A stretch of 64,000 nucleotides of DNA from Clostridia bacterium (GTDB lineage: Bacteria > Bacillota > Clostridia > UMGS1883): the NCBI GenBank assembly GCA_045604905.1, contig JAZUOX010000006.1:772-64771 (forward strand). Direction: 5' to 3'. Position 1 is the stretch's first letter; every line of letters begins with the position of its first letter. The translations under genes were made by a program, and so were the position numbers. This document shows positions 9,005-55,827 of the stretch, piece after piece. The notes beneath the pieces are model-generated. The model was not told the DNA's origin. It saw nothing but the letters and a program-made list of their open reading frames with translations, and searched no databases.

Positions 9005-9943
9005 ATGGATTTTTTAAGTACAGTTGAAGGCAGCATGTGCGAAAGCTTTTTCCCCAAGGGTTGGGACCTCAAGAAAATTGACGAATGCTGTGAAAAGGGT
9101 GTAACCCGTGAAGATTTCTGGCATAAGGACTTTACTCCCGTTGAATGTGACAACATTTTTGAATTTGACACATTTATGGGTCACGAAATCGCTCTTCAGA
9201 TCAAGAACGCTCGCGAAAGAGGCGAAAAGCTTGCTATGATTCTTCCCGTAGGTCCTATGGGTATGTATAAGTGGGCAGTTTACTTTCTTAAGGAATGGAA
9301 TATAAAGTGTGACCACGTTTACACATTCAATATGGACGAATGGTCTGATGCTGAGGGTAACACACTTCCCAACACAGATCCTGCATCATTCGAATACAGC
9401 ATGAAGCAGGCTTTCTTTGATAAGCTTGGCGAGAACACAGTTCCTCCCGCACAGCGTAACTTTGCTTCAAAGGAAAATCTTCCCACATATCCTGAGAAGA
9501 TTGCTGCCCTTAAAGCAGAGGGTGCAAAGCTTGTTCTCGTATTCGGCATAGGTCGTGCTTGTCATATCGCATTCTGGGAACCCCACTTTGCAGATGAATT
9601 TGATACAGTTGAAGAATGGAAGAAGCAGTGCTACAGAATCGGTGCAAAGCTTAACCCTATGACTATCGAGCAGAACGCTATCACAAGCTTCAAGAGCCGT
9701 ACAACACTTGTTCCTTGCCGTGCTAACACAGTTGGACCCGGACTCTTCCTTCAGGCAGATACAATCATCGGCGGATGTGACGGTGCTCTCGGCAGAGGCA
9801 TGGGCTGGCAGGGTATGAGCTTCCTTATGACTCTTCATTACGGTCCTGATAAGAGCATTACATCATCATTCATTCCCACAATGCCCGGTAAGCTCTTCTA
9901 TCTTAAGGAGCTGGCTGGTCCTTTGACAGCAGAATGTAACTAA
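9005..9943 (+). CDS. Glucosamine-6-phosphate deaminase/isomerase (NagB/6-phosphogluconolactonase superfamily)-like protein, atypically long
   Basis: [15 protein letters not shown]...[11 protein letters not shown] resembles the NagB G-x-TP ... FN-x-DEY core. At 312 aa it is longer than a canonical NagB. AAGGAG RBS. Confidence 0.7.
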
Positions 9944-20195: not shown

Positions 20196-22304
20196 TTATG
20201 CGGTGGGTGCCGTTTTTATTATAGTGCCTCCACCAATTACCGTATCGTCACTATATAAAACTACTGCCTGACCTTTGGTTATTGCACGTTGCGGCTCGTC
20301 AAAGGTAACGCGGATAGTATTTTCGTCAAGTTGTACTACCGTTGCATCTGCAGGGGTGTGACGGTAGCGGATTTTCGCTTTAACACGCATAGGCGTATAT
20401 AAATCGTCAACTGCGGTAAGGTTAATGTCGTTTGCCATAAGTTCACTCGAGAACAAATCCTCGTGAGGGCAAAGGATAACTGCATTTTTATCTGTATCAA
20501 TATCGCATACATAAAGGGGGGCAGGTAATGCAAGTCCAAGTCCTTTTCGCTGACCTACGGTGTAGGAAATAATTCCCTTATGGGTTCCGAGGACATTTCC
20601 GTCTTTGTCAATAAAATTACCTTCGGGATAGTCTTTCTCTGTATAACGGCGGATAAAGTCCGTATAATCTTCGTCTTTAACAAAGCATATATCCTGACTG
20701 TCCTTTTTGTGAGCATTTACAAGATTATGCTTTTCTGCAATAGCGCGTGCTTCCTCCTTTGTCATATTGCCAAGGGGGAAGAGAGTTCTTGCAAGCTGCT
20801 CCTTTGTCAATGAATAAAGAACATAGCTCTGGTCCTTTGAGGGGTCAAGGGCTTTTTTTAATACGTATCTGTCATTTTCCTTTTCAATACGTGCATAGTG
20901 TCCAGTTGCGATAAAGTCGCATCCAAGAGCCTCCGCCTCTTTAAATAATCTTTCAAACTTAAGGTGCCTGTTACACTCTATACACGGATTAGGTGTTGCA
21001 CCGTTTTCATAGGCAGAAACAAATTTGTCCACTACCTTTTCACAGAAATCGGGGGAGAAATCGTATACAAAATGCTCCATAGAAAGTGCATCGCACACCT
21101 TTTTTGCATCTTCTATATCCTCAAGACTGCAGCAGGCGTGTTCTTCGTCAATGGGTATTTGCGCTCCGAGAAGCTTCATTGTAGCGCCAACGCAGTCATA
21201 CCCTTTTTCTTTCATCAGATGTGCCGCAACCGAGGAATCAACACCGCCACTCATAGCCACAAGGCATTTGTTACCTGCAGGTTTTTTTACATTTCCAATT
21301 GCAGTCACTACCTTATAACCTGCATTTTTTACACGCTTTTCAAGGAGTGCACGGCTCTGTGCCGCTTCCTCCCCTGTGGCAATTTTATTGTCGTAAATAC
21401 TGTAAAGCTTTCTGAATCTCTGGGGCGAAAGGTTGGGCATAACTACATTTGCCCCTGCCTGAAGTCCTCTTTCTCTGCCGTCCTCAGCGAGTGTACCCAG
21501 TGCCGTTGTCGCGGGTAGCAGTGCATGGGGGAACATTAAACGAAGTACGGAAATAAGCCGTATCGTTAATTCCACACTGCCGTTTTCAAAATCCTTGAAG
21601 GGCGTTTCCTTATGATTAACGTACGGTCCTATTCCAACCATATCGGGCTGAAGTTCTTTAAGGAAGAACAGGTCTGAAATAATGTTGTCAATAGTCTGAT
21701 AAGGCGAGCCGACCATAAATCCGCTACCTACCTGATAACCGATTTTCTTCAGGTCATAAAGACAACGTTTACGGTTTTCAAGGCTCATTTCTGCAGGGTG
21801 GAGCTTATTGTAGTGTTCTTCTTCTGCAGTTTCGTGCCTTAACAGAAAGCGGTTTGCACCTGCATTGAAATAGGCAAGATAACTGTCGTAAGACCTTTCG
21901 CCAACAGATATAGTGATAGCGCAATCGGGAAATTCCCCCCTGATGGTTCTTATAATATCGCAAAATCTTTCATCAGTAAAATAGGGGTCTTCGCCTCCCT
22001 GAAGCACAAAGGTGCGGAAACCCAAGGTGTAACCCTCACGGCAACACTCCATAATTTCATCCTTTGAAAGACGGTAACGTTCCGCCTTTTTGTTGTCGCA
22101 CCTTATACCGCAGTAATAGCAGTTGTTTTTGCAGAAATTTGAAAACTCAATAAGACCGCGGATATAAACATCGGTGCCGTAGATTTCCCTGCGTACCGAA
22201 TCTGCAGTCTTAAAAAGCTCTTCGTCATATTTATCTGTTGAAAGTAATTTTTTGAACTCATCTCTTGTGAGAATATGTTCTTCTTTTAACTTTTTTACCA
22301 ACAT
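20196..22304 (-). CDS. Fusion protein: [FeFe]-hydrogenase H-cluster radical SAM maturase HydE (N-terminal) plus tRNA 2-thiouridine(34) synthase MnmA (C-terminal)
   Basis: The N-terminal ~345 aa is collinear with T. maritima HydE as recalled (IEFSNFCKNNCYYCGIR, VLQGGEDPY, RFLLRHETA, GSGFMVGSPYQT, PATTALGT, GANVVMPN). The C-terminal ~355 aa is a complete MnmA (PP-loop VAMSGGVDSSVAA, NPCIECNRHLKF, KDSQDICFV). The junction AIGNVKKPAGNKCLVAMSGG (nt 21241-21302) has no stop and no internal start. The ATG at 22304 is preceded by AAAGGTG; the listed GTG is at 22313. Confidence 0.85.
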   Translation of the reverse strand: MLVKKLKEEHILTRDEFKKLLSTDKYDEELFKTADSVRREIYGTDVYIRGLIEFSNFCKNNCYYCGIRCDNKKAERYRLSKDEIMECCREGYTLGFRTFVLQGGEDPYFTDERFCDIIRTIRGEFPDCAITISVGERSYDSYLAYFNAGANRFLLRHETAEEEHYNKLHPAEMSLENRKRCLYDLKKIGYQVGSGFMVGSPYQTIDNIISDLFFLKELQPDMVGIGPYVNHKETPFKDFENGSVELTIRLISVLRLMFPHALLPATTALGTLAEDGRERGLQAGANVVMPNLSPQRFRKLYSIYDNKIATGEEAAQSRALLEKRVKNAGYKVVTAIGNVKKPAGNKCLVAMSGGVDSSVAAHLMKEKGYDCVGATMKLLGAQIPIDEEHACCSLEDIEDAKKVCDALSMEHFVYDFSPDFCEKVVDKFVSAYENGATPNPCIECNRHLKFERLFKEAEALGCDFIATGHYARIEKENDRYVLKKALDPSKDQSYVLYSLTKEQLARTLFPLGNMTKEEARAIAEKHNLVNAHKKDSQDICFVKDEDYTDFIRRYTEKDYPEGNFIDKDGNVLGTHKGIISYTVGQRKGLGLALPAPLYVCDIDTDKNAVILCPHEDLFSSELMANDINLTAVDDLYTPMRVKAKIRYRHTPADATVVQLDENTIRVTFDEPQRAITKGQAVVLYSDDTVIGGGTIIKTAPTA

Positions 22305-26290: not shown

Positions 26291-27181
26291 TCAGTACATG
26301 TCTTCGTCATCAGGGTTTATAATTTCACCTTCTTCGTTTACAATAAGTGACGGTTCGTCAAATTGTGATGGGAACGCCTTTGAAACAATAAAGTTAATCA
26401 CAACAAGTGCGACATACACAATAAGTATTTCGAACAGCATACTTACTACAAATACTGAGAAAAATCCGTAAAGAGATGTAAGTGGTTCAACACCACCTTT
26501 TGAGTAATGAAGAAGATAGTCGTATATGGGATAATCATACATAATTTTGTAGAGAATCGCCATAAGAAGAACATTTACAAATGTTGATATAGAAAATCTT
26601 GTCAGTGACACTTTTGCCAAAAGGTCGGTGTAAAAACCGCGGAAACGTGTTCCGAACCACATGGCTTTGTGTCTGTAAAGAAGCCATCCGTGCAAAAAGC
26701 CCGCAACTGTTGCACAGATAAAGTAGATTGCATAAAAACGCTGAAGTTTGACAATCATTCTGACGATTGTACAAAGAGCAACGCCTATTGCGCAGGTAAC
26801 AGGACCGAAAAAGTAGCCTAAAATAGCGTTTATAGTTATGTCAAGGTTTGTTGTTATCGCCTGCTCTACATTGATATTATAGTACTTAAAATCAACAGAG
26901 CCTGCCCAACCAAGAAGGATATACAGCGCAATAAGGAATATAATAACGATAATCGTAACAGGGCTGCGCATATGACTCAGCGAACTCATCATCATAACCT
27001 TGCAGTTTTCCCAGTAGCGCTGAAGAGAGTCAATAATATAGTCTTTTCTTGTTCTGAATCCCTGGAAATCTTCCTCACCATCACCGTAAGAATTTTCCTG
27101 ATATGGTGAAAATTTAGCTCCGAGAGTTTCGTTTTCTGTTTCGTAATTTTGCGGTTGAGAATTGTCTTTTTCTTTTTTCAT
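26291..27181 (-). CDS. Multi-pass membrane protein with acidic cytoplasmic termini, function unknown (weakly ECF S-component-like)
   Basis: ~60-aa polar/acidic N-terminus, about 5-6 hydrophobic helices (a GYFFGPVTCAIGVAL-type segment), and an acidic C-terminal tail (NPDDEDMY). Confidence 0.6.
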   Translation of the reverse strand: MKKEKDNSQPQNYETENETLGAKFSPYQENSYGDGEEDFQGFRTRKDYIIDSLQRYWENCKVMMMSSLSHMRSPVTIIVIIFLIALYILLGWAGSVDFKYYNINVEQAITTNLDITINAILGYFFGPVTCAIGVALCTIVRMIVKLQRFYAIYFICATVAGFLHGWLLYRHKAMWFGTRFRGFYTDLLAKVSLTRFSISTFVNVLLMAILYKIMYDYPIYDYLLHYSKGGVEPLTSLYGFFSVFVVSMLFEILIVYVALVVINFIVSKAFPSQFDEPSLIVNEEGEIINPDDEDMY

Positions 27182-38821: not shown

Positions 38822-40456
38822 ATGATAAAATTTGATAAAAACGATGAAATACTTACAAATATTGCCCGTGTTGTTGGAAAAAGACTTCCCGAAAATACGG
38901 ATGTTGAACTCAGAATTGATAAGTCGATGGACGAAATGGATTCCGAAATAAAAAACGGTGTGATTTCTGCAGGTGCATACGGTCAGCTTCTTGATGCGGC
39001 AGGCAGATTTTTAAGAAATCCGAAAGTAAGCGGTAAATTCCATTCCTATAAAACCATAAGCGGAATGTATTTTGCATCACATAACTCAAACTACTATGTT
39101 AGTGCGCCGCTTGAGGAAATTTATGAGTATATTGAAGACCTCGCTCTTTGGGGTATGAATACAATGCGTATGTGGTTTGACCTTTTCTATTATAAGAATA
39201 TGGCAGACGGAAAAGAATTTGCCGACAGAATGAAAGCGATGATTAAATACGCAAAGTCTATCGGTGTTAAAATATGTCTGTCTATTATTTCAAATGAAGC
39301 TTTCCACGTAAGCCCGAAAGAGCTTCGTGCTGACTGGACGGGCGGACACGACGGATACATAAAGAATCTTAACGACCATTATCACGTTGAAATATGTCCG
39401 TCAAAGCCCGGCGGTATCGAAAAAATTCTTGAATACAGACGCGACTGGCTTGAAACCTTCAAAGATGCGGCACCCGATATGATTGATATAGGACCTTACG
39501 ACGAGGGCGGTTGTACCTGCCCCGATTGTGCTCCGTGGGGTGCAAACGGATATGTAAGGTGTTGTGAAGCGCTTGCAAAGCTTGTGAAAGAATATTTCCC
39601 CGAAGCAGAACTTAATCTTTCTTTGTGGATGTTTGGCGTTTTCACAGGTAACAATATTGAATTTGAAAAACTCAGCGAAATTCTTGCAACCGACAGACTC
39701 AAAGATTTTAAATATGTAGGTACTGACCCGTATTATCAGTCGTATGCTTATGAAATTGATATGCACCGCCCGCTTATGGCGAGATTTGAAATCAGTATGT
39801 GTGATACTGTTCCGTGGGGCGGTTACGGTACAAATCCCATTCCTAAAAGAATTATGGAAAAATGGGCGCCCTACAGCGACAAAAATATTGGCGGATGTCC
39901 TTACTCGGAAGGATTTTATGAGGATATAAATAAGGTTATCTCGCTTCGTCTTTACAGAGATAATCAGGACCCCGAAATTACAATCAGCGAATATCTTCGC
40001 TATGAGTTCGGCTTTGAGGGTGAAATGCTTGAAAAGGTTACGCAGGCGATAATGGATATGGAAGAAACTCTTTACCGTGACTTTGTGGAGGGACATTGCT
40101 ATCTTGTACATAATCCTGAAAAAATCCCTGCAATAGAAAAGACAATTATTGAAGCGGACGCAACTCTTCCCGAAAATATAAAAAGTAAAAAACGCTGGCA
40201 ACTTATCTATCTTCGTGCTATAATAGACGGAGAGCTTTACAGAAACGATTTTACCCGTAACGACAAGGTTATGGAATGCTTCAGAAAAATCATTGAAATC
40301 GGCTATCTTGACAACGCAAGCTTTTATATAAAGCCTGACATAATCGTTGATGCGGACTACGGGAAGGAAGTGCTTTCAATCCCTGAAATTATGAGAATTG
40401 TATGGGGTAAAAAGCCTGACCTTGGTGACGAATTCAAAGAAGATTATTATGACTGA
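38822..40456 (+). CDS. Uncharacterised putative glycoside hydrolase (clan GH-A-like TIM barrel) with a Cys-rich insert
   Basis: ...LALWGMNTMRMWFD..., ...GVKICLSIISNEAF (an N-E acid/base-like motif after a beta strand) and ...IDIGPYDEGGCTCPDCAPWGANGYVRCCEA... The ATG at 38822 follows AGGGAG; the listed 38771 start lacks an RBS. Family not recognised. Confidence 0.5.
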   Translation: MIKFDKNDEILTNIARVVGKRLPENTDVELRIDKSMDEMDSEIKNGVISAGAYGQLLDAAGRFLRNPKVSGKFHSYKTISGMYFASHNSNYYVSAPLEEIYEYIEDLALWGMNTMRMWFDLFYYKNMADGKEFADRMKAMIKYAKSIGVKICLSIISNEAFHVSPKELRADWTGGHDGYIKNLNDHYHVEICPSKPGGIEKILEYRRDWLETFKDAAPDMIDIGPYDEGGCTCPDCAPWGANGYVRCCEALAKLVKEYFPEAELNLSLWMFGVFTGNNIEFEKLSEILATDRLKDFKYVGTDPYYQSYAYEIDMHRPLMARFEISMCDTVPWGGYGTNPIPKRIMEKWAPYSDKNIGGCPYSEGFYEDINKVISLRLYRDNQDPEITISEYLRYEFGFEGEMLEKVTQAIMDMEETLYRDFVEGHCYLVHNPEKIPAIEKTIIEADATLPENIKSKKRWQLIYLRAIIDGELYRNDFTRNDKVMECFRKIIEIGYLDNASFYIKPDIIVDADYGKEVLSIPEIMRIVWGKKPDLGDEFKEDYYD

Positions 40457-49193: not shown

Positions 49194-49222
49194 TTGACAA
49201 GTCAAAAGTCATCTGTTATAAT
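49194..49222 (+). promoter_or_regulatory. Consensus sigma-A promoter of the tRNA-Leu gene
   Basis: TTGACA (49194-49199), exactly 17 nt, TATAAT (49217-49222), preceded by an A/T-rich UP-like tract. Confidence 0.8.
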
Positions 49223-49255
49223 AAGCTACGTTGTCACGAGATGACACATCGATAT

Positions 49256-49338
49256 GCGAGAGTGGCGGAATCGGCAGACGCGCACGTTTAAGGTGCGTGT
49301 GGGAGACCATACGGGTTCAAGTCCCGTCTCTCGCACCA
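49256..49338 (+). tRNA. tRNA-Leu (class II, long variable arm, encoded CCA); the anticodon loop UUAAGGU gives anticodon AAG
   Basis: Acceptor GCGAGAG/CTCTCGC. D arm GCG-GAATCGGCAGA-CGC. Anticodon stem CACGT/GCGTG with loop TTAAGGT. Variable arm TGG-GAGA-CCA. T arm ACGGG-TTCAAGT-CCCGT, then ACCA. Position for position collinear with E. coli tRNA-Leu(CAG) as recalled. Confidence 0.9.
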
Positions 49339-49344
49339 TAAAAA

Positions 49345-49381
49345 GAAGACATCAACCGAAAGGTTGGTGTCTTTCTTTTTA
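49345..49381 (+). terminator. Rho-independent terminator after tRNA-Leu
   Basis: GAAGACATCAACC-GAAA-GGTTGGTGTCTTT followed by CTTTTT. Confidence 0.85.
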
Positions 49382-49443
49382 TGTATAAAATGAAAGGGAC
49401 TTGAAGCCTATACTAAATAAAATATCCCCGTTACAATTAATTC

Positions 49444-50004: not shown

Positions 50005-51036
50005 ATGAACAGCAAAGTTTCAGAAATCAAAGCTCTGTTTGACGAGAAAATCGCCTCTGTTACTTCTTCCGATAATGTTGAAGAATTAAGAGTTGAATTC
50101 CTCGGCAAAAAGGGTTATGTAGCAGGACTTATGGGCGAACTCAAGAATATTCCCAATGAGGAAAAGAAAGAGTTCGGTCAGGTAGTTAACGTAATCAAGC
50201 AGGAGATTGAGGTGGCTATCACTTCAAGAAAAGCCGAGCTGCTTAAAGAAGAGCAGGAAAGAATCATCAACAGTGCGGAAGTGTATGACGAGTCGCTTCC
50301 TTATCATATTCAGACAGGTTCTTATCATCCCATCACTCTTGTGCAGCGTGACCTCGAAAGAATTTTCGCAAGTATGGGCTTCACAATCGAGGATTATTCC
50401 GAAATTGTTGACGACTACCACTGCTTCGAGGCGCTTAATATTCCCAAGCATCACCCCGCGCGTGATATGCAGGATACTTACTACTTAAGCACTGAAAATC
50501 AGCTTCTCAAGACTCATACATCTGCGGCACAGAACGCTATTATGCGTAAGTACGGTGCACCTCTCAGGGCAATTTTCCCCGGAAGATGCTTCCGTAACGA
50601 GTCAACAGATGCCTGTCACGAAAACACATTCTTCCAGATGGAAGGTATTATGATAGATAAGAATATTTCTATTTCTAACCTTATTTACTTTATGAAGACT
50701 AGGCTTTCTGAAGTTTTCCAGAAGGATGTTACAGTTCGTCTTCGTCCTGGTTTCTTCCCATTTGTGGAACCCGGTTTCGAGCTTGATATACAGTGCCTTA
50801 TTTGCGGCGGTGACGGATGTCCCTCTTGTAAAAATTCCGGCTGGCTTGAGCTTTGCCCCTGCGGTATGATTCATCCCAACGTACTTACACACGGTGGTAT
50901 TGATCCCGAGGAATATACGGGCTTCGCATTCGGTCTTGGCCTTACAAGACTTGCAATGATGAAGTACGGAATAAAAGATATCAGAGTATTTAACAGCGGC
51001 AGTCTTAAATCACTGTCACAGTTTAAGAATGAGTAA
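50005..51036 (+). CDS. pheS: Phenylalanine--tRNA ligase alpha subunit
   Basis: Class II aaRS motifs (...HPARDMQDTYY..., ...FPGRCFRNE..., ...GFAFGLGLTRLAM...). The ATG at 50005 follows AGGAGG; the listed 49963 start lacks an RBS. Confidence 0.96.
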   Translation: MNSKVSEIKALFDEKIASVTSSDNVEELRVEFLGKKGYVAGLMGELKNIPNEEKKEFGQVVNVIKQEIEVAITSRKAELLKEEQERIINSAEVYDESLPYHIQTGSYHPITLVQRDLERIFASMGFTIEDYSEIVDDYHCFEALNIPKHHPARDMQDTYYLSTENQLLKTHTSAAQNAIMRKYGAPLRAIFPGRCFRNESTDACHENTFFQMEGIMIDKNISISNLIYFMKTRLSEVFQKDVTVRLRPGFFPFVEPGFELDIQCLICGGDGCPSCKNSGWLELCPCGMIHPNVLTHGGIDPEEYTGFAFGLGLTRLAMMKYGIKDIRVFNSGSLKSLSQFKNE

Positions 51037-54810: not shown

Positions 54811-55827
54811 ATGTGGACTGAAGAAAAACTTGACAATTTACTTACAGAGCCCTCCGATGCCCTTGTGGAGGATATGAAGAAAATACAGGGCGACATTATG
54901 GTGCTCGGCGCAGGTGGAAAAATGGGACCTACCCTTTGCCTTCTCGCAAAGAGAGCTATTGAAAAAGCAGGTATTGAGAAAAAGGTTATTGCTGTATCAC
55001 GTTTTTCAGACCCTATCGCGACAAAGCTTCTTACAGATAACGGTATCGACATCATCAGTGCAGACCTTCAGAACCGTGAGCAGTTTGATGCGCTTCCTCT
55101 TTGCGAAAACGTAATCTTTATGGCAGGTAAGAAATTCGGTACAGACGGTAACGAATGGGCAACCTGGGGTATGAATGCCACACTTCCTGCATTTGTTGCA
55201 GAAAAGTATAAGGCATCAAACATAGTTGTATTCTCTTCGGGAAATACTTATCCTATCGTTCCCGTAAATCAGGGCGGATGCAGAGAATGTGACAAACAGG
55301 GCCCCATCGGTGAATATGCTATGAGCTGTCTTGCAAGAGAAAGGGCTTTTGAGTACGGTGCAAACACATTCGGAACAAAGGTATTTATCTACCGTCTTAA
55401 CTTTGCGGTAGACCTCCGCTACGGTGTGCTTTACGACCTTGCGGACAATATTATAAACCACAGACCGATTTCTCTTTCAACACCTCTCTTTAACTTTATC
55501 TGGCAGGGAAGTGCAAACGAAATCGCAATCCGCGGTCTTCTTCACGCAGAAAGTCCTGCAAAGAAGGTTAACATAACAGGACCCGAAACAGTGTCTATCA
55601 GAAAAGCTGCCCAGGAGCTTGGTGAATATCTTGGCATTGAGCCGATTTTTGAAAATGAAGAAGGAAACGATGCTTATCTTAACGATGCGTCACTTGCCAT
55701 GGAAATGTTCGGCTATCCCTCTGTAAGTGCAAAGACGCTTATCCGCTGGCAGGCAGAATGGATTAAGGACGGCGGCAGAGGTCTTGGTAAGCCTACTCAT
55801 TTTGAAGAAAGAAAGGGTGCATATTAA
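54811..55827 (+). CDS. NAD-dependent epimerase/dehydratase family (extended SDR) protein
   Basis: Rossmann motif MVLGAGGKMGPTL; size and layout of an extended SDR; GGGAG RBS. Confidence 0.75.
   Translation: MWTEEKLDNLLTEPSDALVEDMKKIQGDIMVLGAGGKMGPTLCLLAKRAIEKAGIEKKVIAVSRFSDPIATKLLTDNGIDIISADLQNREQFDALPLCENVIFMAGKKFGTDGNEWATWGMNATLPAFVAEKYKASNIVVFSSGNTYPIVPVNQGGCRECDKQGPIGEYAMSCLARERAFEYGANTFGTKVFIYRLNFAVDLRYGVLYDLADNIINHRPISLSTPLFNFIWQGSANEIAIRGLLHAESPAKKVNITGPETVSIRKAAQELGEYLGIEPIFENEEGNDAYLNDASLAMEMFGYPSVSAKTLIRWQAEWIKDGGRGLGKPTHFEERKGAY

Follow-up and report, generated by a model that had tools for sequence, protein, structure and literature searches.

The tRNA-Leu(AAG) Gene and Its Signals

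The window analyzed here, a 64-kb stretch of DNA (64,000 nucleotides), comes from an uncultured member of the Clostridia represented by a metagenome-assembled genome (MAG; 2.16 Mb in 75 contigs, 40.2% G+C, 81% complete). ARAGORN identifies one tRNA gene in the window and assigns it as tRNA-Leu(AAG), a leucine tRNA with an encoded adenosine at the wobble position (A34). The gene is located on an 82-kb contig between a clpC-like gene, which is divergent from it, and pheST, with a T-box leader, pheS, and pheT lying downstream. The likely start of pheS is the ATG at 50005, which is preceded by AGGAGG. The gene, its anticodon arm, and the signals around it are the following.

49256-49338, forward strand: tRNA-Leu(AAG) gene, 83 nt including the encoded CCA (49336-49338), from ARAGORN and Rfam RF00005
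49283-49299, forward strand: anticodon arm of tRNA-Leu(AAG), from Rfam and ARAGORN
49290, 49291, and 49292, forward strand: anticodon bases A34, A35, and G36, followed by G37 at 49293 and U38 at 49294
49194-49222, forward strand: sigma-70-type promoter of the tRNA gene, 12/12 consensus positions, TG before the −10 element
49232-49246, forward strand: leader hairpin UGUCA-CGAGA-UGACA with a 5-bp stem, read from the sequence between the promoter and the mature 5′ end
49345-49384, forward strand: intrinsic terminator serving the tRNA gene, its 13-bp stem capped by GAAA (49345-49374), then a T run

The Rfam tRNA covariance model (RF00005) matches the gene with 49 bits (gathering 29; E 1.8e-7), and its alignment gives the anticodon stem CACGU/GCGUG and the loop UUAAGGU at top posterior probability throughout. 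The ARAGORN cloverleaf has a 7-bp acceptor stem, a 3-bp D stem (GCG/CGC), the discriminator A73, and a 7-nt anticodon loop with U33 and G37. For a class II tRNA, the variable arm is short, the gene measuring 83 nt compared with 87 nt in the other three leucine tRNAs of the genome. An earlier reading of this DNA from its letters alone (the original prediction) had called a class II tRNA-Leu with A34, in the register of a CAG tRNA. Both assignments stand: ARAGORN and Rfam agree on the class and the anticodon, the covariance-model fold keeps UUAAGGU as the loop, and the genome's own tRNA-Leu(CAG), with the loop UUCAGGU, has the same register.

The gene also has its own consensus promoter and terminator, as had been proposed. 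The −35 element TTGACA (49194-49199) and the −10 element TATAAT (49217-49222) are separated by a 17-nt spacer containing TG (49214-49215). The promoter ends 33 nt before the 5′ end of the tRNA, and the terminator begins 7 nt downstream of the gene. A scan of 900 bases around the tRNA gives 8 promoter-like sites where shuffled sequences lead one to expect 2.8, and 5 terminator-like sites where 0.7 are expected. The promoter architecture is found at the matching upstream distance in 13 of 14 relatives examined, and it is present in G024 as well (a genome discussed below). The leader and the terminator are likewise kept in 13 of the 14, with different letters in the terminator stem. The leader hairpin is presumably removed together with the leader by RNase P. 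By eye, a hairpin stands at the corresponding spot in relatives with its stem letters changed, for example GTTGT-GAAAA-ACAAC in locus L098.

Distribution and Origin of A34

We sampled the order with 87 genomes from three families, 64 from the host's own family (f1) and 23 from two sister families, and searched them with an anticodon-arm pattern in which R was allowed at position 34 and N at position 38. In f1, 57/64 genomes, spread over 6 of 7 genera, match the pattern; A34 is present in every one of them and is accompanied by U38 in 56. The presence of an identical anticodon arm in 56 of these 57 genomes excludes the sequencing error that had been a worry in the original prediction. In the sister families, 21/23 genomes are matched, all by CACGTTTGAGGGGCGTG, that is, by G34 and G38 on an identical stem. 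These sister-family genes are tRNA-Leu(GAG), 80-81% identical overall to tRNA-Leu(AAG). With A34 in the family and G34 on the same stem in its sisters, the G34-to-A34 change must have been local, and the sequences place it as a single event at the base of f1. The one A34 genome without U38 is G024, in which G38 occurs on the backbone of the family, preceded by the promoter typical of f1.

The difference at position 38 (U38 in the family, G38 in the sister families) was considered as a specific co-adaptation to A34 and rejected. GAG tRNAs with U38 on the same stem are found elsewhere at no fewer than 120 loci, including Faecalibacterium and Gemmiger. In a wide scan with the A34 anticodon arm (one genome per species, at least 120 loci), 79 of 100 AAG tRNAs among the matches listed retain G38, as does the A34 gene of G024.

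Within the genus, 21 of 24 genomes sampled by BLAST carry the 83-nt gene at 96-100% identity. ARAGORN assigns AAG to all 20 complete copies, and the copy in G024, which is cut by a contig end, reads AAG in the pattern search. The gene is 100% identical in 17 relatives' loci, although the PheS proteins encoded there are only 85-92% identical, and in the remaining loci the differences are almost confined to the variable loop. We conclude that tRNA-Leu(AAG) is a real and functional gene under strong selection, and that it is the main leucine decoder of the host.

The nearest relatives of the gene are the GAG tRNAs of its own order, which points to an origin separate from that of the tRNA-Leu(AAG) of Lactobacillales. 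Common descent with the latter is not supported, since both the backbone and the stem are those of the sister-family GAG tRNAs and the A34/G34 split follows the families, a pattern that speaks for a local G34A change rather than for inheritance or transfer.

The tRNA Complement of the Host

ARAGORN finds 39 tRNAs in the host genome. The leucine set consists of AAG, CAG, UAA, and CAA, and the only other A34 tRNA is tRNA-Arg(ACG) (G000:C65:39523-39599). The original prediction had asked whether a GAG isoacceptor is missing, and indeed tRNA-Leu(GAG) was not found among the 39 tRNAs. Since the genome is 81% complete and lacks other tRNAs, this is not proof of absence. BLAST searches of 25 same-genus genomes, the host included, detect a GAG copy in only one of them, G006, and tRNA-Leu(AAG) is the only CUY reader found in the other 24.

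G006 has both genes: an intact tRNA-Leu(GAG) at G006:C58:19613-19767 (L297, L103) and tRNA-Leu(AAG) on a 3-kb contig, G006:C69 (L001). Its GAG gene has G38, is 90% identical to the AAG gene, and lies on the contig that carries the only clpC-like orthologue of G006. It is either a surviving ancestral copy or the product of a strain mixture. In the near relative G072, a 3.2-Mb bin with 7% contamination, tRNA-Leu(CAG) and tRNA-Leu(GAG) with stems unlike those of the host occur at G072:C31:3300-4400 (L493), on a 7.9-kb contig. A comparison of 1.1 kb of this contig gave no match in the host genome, and the contig is probably a contaminant.

These two genomes, together with the incompleteness of the host MAG and the several tRNAs missing from it, are what could be held up for the view that the AAG gene has decayed to a pseudogene or results from bin contamination or misassembly, with a normal tRNA-Leu(GAG) lying in the unassembled 19%. 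That view is very unlikely. The contig that carries the gene is 82 kb long, with a clpC-like gene on one side of the tRNA and pheST on the other, and the promoter matches the consensus perfectly. More than 50 genomes, each assembled independently, have the same gene with few or no differences, and BLAST found no other CUY reader in 24/25 same-genus genomes. Furthermore, the GAG contig of G072 comes from a contaminated bin and is without a match in the host.

tRNA-Leu(UAG) was likewise not found by ARAGORN in the 81%-complete host genome. Its loss was considered as proof of inosine at position 34 (I34) and rejected: tRNA-Leu(UAG) is present in at least 22/64 family genomes, the near relatives G072 and G078 among them. 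The gap in the host is therefore probably one of assembly and is uninformative on inosine.

Leucine Codon Use

Codons were counted in 1473 long open reading frames (ORFs), amounting to 84% of the genome. CUU makes up 60.4% of leucine codons, followed by CUC (11.7%), CUG (10.5%), UUA (8.5%), UUG (7.0%), and CUA (1.9%). Among all codons, CUU ranks second in frequency (4.85%), and CUC is represented by 5671 codons. CUU and CUC together account for 72% of leucine codons and 5.8% of all codons, which fits a perfect promoter on a single-copy tRNA gene. The bias that had been noticed by hand in pheS, where 10 of the first 14 leucine codons are CUU or CUC, holds when counted from ATG 50005 and extends to the whole genome.

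A search of the host bin for the L2 family of ribosomal proteins gave no hit. In place of the ribosomal-protein operon, we used the 73 genes with the strongest codon bias, a self-consistent set chosen without the leucine codons. Its top 20 include GAPDH, EF-Ts, PFOR, PPDK, PEPCK, S2, L1, and S-layer-type (SLH-domain) proteins, and these identities indicate that the set tracks expression. Of its 2284 leucine codons, 1725 are CUU, 390 are CUC, and 169 are others, which brings CUU and CUC to 93% and CUC alone to 17.1%. The share of C among codons ending in C or U, C/(C+U), compares as follows between the biased set and the rest.

Leu (CUN): 0.18 in the biased set, 0.16 in the rest
Thr: 0.16 in the biased set, 0.39 in the rest
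Ala: 0.05 in the biased set, 0.32 in the rest
Val: 0.03 in the biased set, 0.16 in the rest
Ser: 0.12 in the biased set, 0.37 in the rest
Arg (CGN): 0.24 in the biased set, 0.37 in the rest

The C share is thus kept for leucine and falls sharply for threonine, alanine, valine, and serine, which argues that CUU and CUC are both favored and that CUC is not selected against. In the biased set, the CUN box is used as U.80, C.18, A.00, and G.02, and the CGN box as U.75, C.23, A.01, and G.00. The CUN profile therefore mirrors that of the inosine-read CGN box. As indirect evidence, it is what would be expected of an I34 tRNA reading CUU and CUC equally, and a poor A:C pair would hardly account for it.

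TadA

The enzyme that would make inosine at position 34 is the tRNA adenosine deaminase TadA. In the host, TadA is encoded by an ORF of 166 aa at G000:C70:1565-2062 (L126:1510-2007), which scores 134 bits to PF14437 and has intact HAE and PCxxC motifs. Its best matches among solved structures are tRNA adenosine deaminases (E 1e-31 to 2e-39), including the Staphylococcus aureus TadA chain 2b3j (E 3e-39). It is the one ORF in the host genome above the PF14437 family cut-off; a second deaminase-fold ORF scored below.

We aligned 18 TadAs of family f1 with 12 from the sister families, 9 from other AAG lineages, and 5 from lineages with GAG and U38; a tenth AAG lineage was left out because it yielded no ORF carrying both motifs. 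Certain residues are specific to the family and common to 18/18 of its TadAs, such as PTLHAE in place of PTAHAE (0/12 in the sister families), a substitution of Leu for Ala before the catalytic His. The loop after PCxxC is of normal length in the family TadAs, whereas the sister-family TadAs have deletions of 5-12 residues there. Convergent TadA substitutions were considered and rejected, as no residue is common to the AAG lineages in the alignment. Judged from this alignment, the TadA sequence speaks neither for nor against a broader range of substrates. The C terminus of the host TadA is about 14-22 residues longer than in the other 17 family TadAs.

Decoding of CUU and CUC

We propose that a local tRNA-Leu(GAG) underwent a G34-to-A34 change that became fixed at the base of the family, after which GAG would have been lost. 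tRNA-Leu(AAG) would be transcribed alone from its consensus promoter, trimmed, and charged with leucine, and the genome's one TadA would convert A34 to inosine, as is required already for tRNA-Arg(ACG). I34 would pair with U and C, and weakly with A, and one tRNA could in this way serve both CUU and CUC. Such a tRNA would be without the strong CUC preference of a G34 tRNA, which would suit a CUU-dominated genome. According to PMC13249217, tRNA-Leu(IAG) reads CUU and CUC at equal speed, and tRNA-Leu(GAG) reads CUC about 10-fold faster. On balance, we consider it probable that tRNA-Leu(AAG) is the single reader of CUU and CUC and that its A34 is deaminated to I34 by TadA. The deamination, and the acceptance of the UUAAGGU loop by TadA, are what we infer by analogy with known systems.

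The chief alternative is that the unmodified A34 works as it is. CUU would be read by a Watson-Crick A:U pair and CUC less well, the CUU bias would be an adaptation of the genome, and TadA would act on tRNA-Arg(ACG) only. Unmodified A34 tRNAs do exist in other bacteria. Moreover, ANN tRNAs expressed from the Escherichia coli genome are reported to be functional in all cases without severe cost, those of four-fold boxes often being neutral or beneficial (10.64898/2026.05.15.725136). Arguing the other way, CUC still provides 11.7% of leucine codons in the host, and its share rises to 17.1% in the most biased genes, where other boxes purge C-ending codons. In g12, a GC-rich genus of the family, PFOR contains 17-22 CUC among about 70 leucine codons. 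Furthermore, each tRNA-Leu(AAG) with a reported modification state (those of Oenococcus oeni, Streptococcus pyogenes, Streptococcus mutans, and oral streptococci) has I34, as far as the sources at hand extend. Weighing both sides, we regard unmodified decoding as a serious rival, though clearly the less likely of the two readings. The fuller version of it, in which an unmodified A34 reads the second most frequent codon, the whole family translates about 6% of its codons in this manner, the range of TadA is not widened, and the CUU bias is the footprint, we hold to be unlikely.

Several observations weigh against deamination and against a single reader. The loop UUAAGGU differs from CUACGAA, the loop of the host's own tRNA-Arg(ACG), at four positions (32, 35, 37, and 38). 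The streptococcal tRNA-Leu(AAG) is reported not to be deaminated by E. coli TadA (PMC11472039), from which it follows that deamination needs an adapted enzyme. The original prediction had looked to tadA for signs of an expanded substrate range; the gene is indeed present and intact, but the family-specific residues are found in 0/9 TadAs from unrelated tRNA-Leu(AAG) lineages, and the convergent signature that might have told against unmodified decoding is thus missing from the lineages aligned. An intact GAG gene stands beside the AAG gene in one family member, G006, and the near relative G072 has a GAG tRNA, albeit with a different anticodon stem and on a short contig. Also not found in the 81%-complete host genome are the tRNAs for Ala, Ile, and Trp, as well as the main operon of ribosomal proteins. 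Finally, the codon pattern is only indirect as support for I34.

Comparison of the A34 genomes with their G34 relatives adds to this last point. In 20-kb samples, CUU makes up 24-56% of leucine codons in 11 sister-family genomes with G34 and 34-59% in 6 A34 genomes; in a twelfth sister-family genome, whose GAG gene was recognized by the anticodon-arm pattern, it makes up 41%. Since CUU is already dominant in G34 sister genomes, its dominance came first. We also compared orthologues of PFOR, a highly expressed gene, from 21 A34 and 20 G34 genomes. The median CUC/(CUC+CUU) is 0.35 (0.02-0.62) in the G34 genomes versus 0.26 (0.09-0.44) in the A34 genomes, a raw difference that is not significant (p 0.12). 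When C/(C+U) of all other codons is subtracted from the CUC share, the medians are −0.07 for G34 and −0.23 for A34, with p 3e-4, a value that overstates the contrast because the genomes are kin and the comparison rests on one evolutionary transition. The CUC share lies more than 0.1 below the background C share in 20/21 A34 genomes versus 9/20 G34 genomes. In the GC-rich genus g12, where C/(C+U) of the other codons in PFOR is 0.63-0.80, CUU still accounts for 56-61% of CUY. Codon use after the switch thus shifted to CUU and not to CUC, which would suit an unmodified A34. The A34 switch accompanies a move toward CUU, as it does in Lactobacillales, and CUC stays in use.

Possible Remnants of a Second tRNA-Leu Copy

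Comparison with relatives reveals one further feature downstream of the terminator.

49396-49408, no strand assigned: GGGACTTGAAGCC, an inverted copy of tRNA T-arm sequence, 13 nt

In 10 relatives' loci (L001, L003, L005, L007, L008, L011, L021, L094, L096, and L098), the AAG gene is followed by an insert of about 160 nt. The insert starts with the inverted T-arm motif and ends in a direct repeat of the last 18 nt of the tRNA and a terminator. It comes in two sequence types, and the window retains only the 13-nt inverted piece. A search of the relatives' insert against Rfam gave no credible match, and its consensus fold shows nothing but the long-range stem formed by the inverted tRNA fragments. 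The insert may derive from a decayed second copy of tRNA-Leu, or it may be a small mobile insertion. Seen against these loci, the motif in the window is probably all that is left of a second tRNA-Leu copy.

The GAG gene of G006 precedes the terminator and inverted motif that also follow the AAG gene, the match being 94% identical across 155 nt. In genus g16 (G057:C53, G058:C305, G059:C17, and G063:C39), two AAG anticodon arms lie 250-1150 bases apart on each contig and represent tandem copies. Taken together, the insert remnants, the double set of G006, and the tandem AAG copies suggest a duplication, after which one copy would have become AAG and the GAG copy would have decayed.

Other Features of the Neighborhood

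The tRNA gene is surrounded by ordinary chromosomal genes. Farther upstream of it lie uvrA, recJ, relA, infB, nusA, truB, and ribF, and the sporulation gene yabQ is also in the neighborhood. The nearest relatives of the host PheS in named records are from MAGs labelled Clostridia bacterium or uncultured Oscillospiraceae, out of ruminant and human gut samples. With gut Clostridia as its nearest relatives, the host is not a lactic acid bacterium.

At 20199-22304 on the reverse strand, the window contains a 702-aa ORF with an N-terminal radical SAM domain joined to a complete MnmA-type tRNA 2-thiouridylase (three tRNA_Me_trans domains), a fusion that is unusual for an enzyme of tRNA wobble modification. 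No Pfam match at E 1e-5 was obtained for four ORFs of 296-544 aa: 38822-40453 (forward), 9005-9940 (forward), 26294-27181 (reverse), and 54811-55824 (forward). The first of these comes directly before a GH3 gene, and a GH94 gene comes after that.

Occurrence Beyond the Family

Among the matches listed in the wide scan, 99/120 loci hold tRNA-Leu(AAG), with at least 100 genes and at least 70 distinct sequences (L158-L277). The MAGs with AAG among these matches include Christensenella, many Clostridia, Nitrospirales, Vampirovibrionales, Gammaproteobacteria, Bacilli, Caldiserica, and others, and the named isolates are Clostridium ganghwense and a Haloimpatiens sp. That 70 or more distinct AAG sequences come from many phyla indicates that the switch is recurrent and much wider than surveys of cultured genomes show.

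In surveys of the genomic tRNA database, the AAG gene is reported from Lactobacillus, Lactococcus, Streptococcus, Leuconostoc, Mycoplasma, and Prochlorococcus (PMC13249217; bioRxiv preprint). Katanski et al. ask whether inosine-linked leucine recoding extends beyond Lactobacillales, and the further candidates named in their concluding remarks are Mycoplasma and Prochlorococcus only (PMC13249217). Clostridia go unmentioned in the main texts of both surveys, although the supplements may list Clostridia genomes. A full-text literature search gave no paper on A34 in a tRNA-Leu(AAG) of Clostridia, and literature searches gave no tRNA-seq data for the host lineage. Surveys of cultured-bacteria genomes undercount tRNA-Leu(AAG), as the distinct sequences of the wide scan show.

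Comparison with Known Systems

tRNAs with an unmodified A34 are known outside leucine, namely tRNA-Thr and tRNA-Ser of O. oeni and tRNA-Thr(AGU) of Mycoplasma. Like the host tRNA, they carry a genomically encoded A34, belong to a four-fold codon box, and occur in genomes of Firmicute type. They differ from it in that they are not leucine tRNAs and that their unmodified state was measured. Were A34 unmodified in f1 as well, a wobble adenosine thought to be avoided by bacteria would be in routine use across a family.

The eukaryotic tRNA-Leu(AAG), converted to IAG by ADAT2/ADAT3, has the same anticodon and the same expected I34 reading of CUU, CUC, and CUA. ADAT2/ADAT3 is a heterodimer with relaxed loop specificity, according to PMC11472039, whereas the host has one TadA-type match above the cut-off. 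Closer at hand is the conversion of tRNA-Arg(ACG) to ICG by TadA. Both the tRNA and TadA are present in the host, and in its biased genes the CGN and CUN profiles are alike (U far above C, A and G near zero). The two tRNAs differ in their loops, CUACGAA for arginine and UUAAGGU for leucine, and it is the leucine loop that E. coli TadA is reported to reject (PMC11472039).

The nearest parallel is the AAG/IAG system of Lactobacillales (families Lactobacillaceae and Streptococcaceae; O. oeni, S. pyogenes, S. mutans, and the TadA of Streptococcus pneumoniae). The first demonstration of I34 in a tRNA-Leu(AAG) came from O. oeni, as cited in PMC11472039 and PMC8072771. The tRNA-Leu(AAG) of S. pyogenes is reported to have I34 in vivo and to be edited in vitro by the streptococcal but not by the E. 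coli TadA (PMC11472039), and S. mutans and oral streptococci are reported to have I34 and a genome-wide recoding to CUU and CUC (PMC13249217). The original prediction placed A34 outside tRNA-Arg in a minority of lineages; this is right, but it understates the I34 leucine tRNAs and expanded TadA already described in O. oeni and Streptococcus (PMC11472039, PMC13249217).

The likenesses are many. In both systems a class II tRNA-Leu has A34-A35-G36-G37, AAG replaces GAG rather than joining it, and there is one TadA gene. In both, leucine codons are shifted to CUU and CUC at the expense of UUA (8.5% in the host), and tRNA-Leu(UAG) is kept in the lineage (in f1, by the family genomes counted above). 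The differences concern the host, a Clostridia MAG of separate class and origin, and the loop, since the streptococcal editing consensus YUAMGRA has A38 (PMC11472039) and the host tRNA has U38. The CUU bias is much stronger in the host, at 60% of leucine codons, whereas UUA stays the top leucine codon in the families treated in PMC13249217. Finally, editing is demonstrated in Lactobacillales and predicted for the host.

The host gene is therefore an independently arisen instance of a tRNA type already known from Lactobacillales. Family f1 offers a clean, independent replicate of that transition, with one G34A switch at the family boundary, sister families on GAG, and a codon shift in the same direction as in Lactobacillales but stronger. 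If the f1 TadA does not edit tRNA-Leu(AAG), the family would be the more unusual case of the two. If it does, it would be a second, convergently widened TadA beside that of Lactobacillales, useful for understanding the loop specificity of the enzyme.

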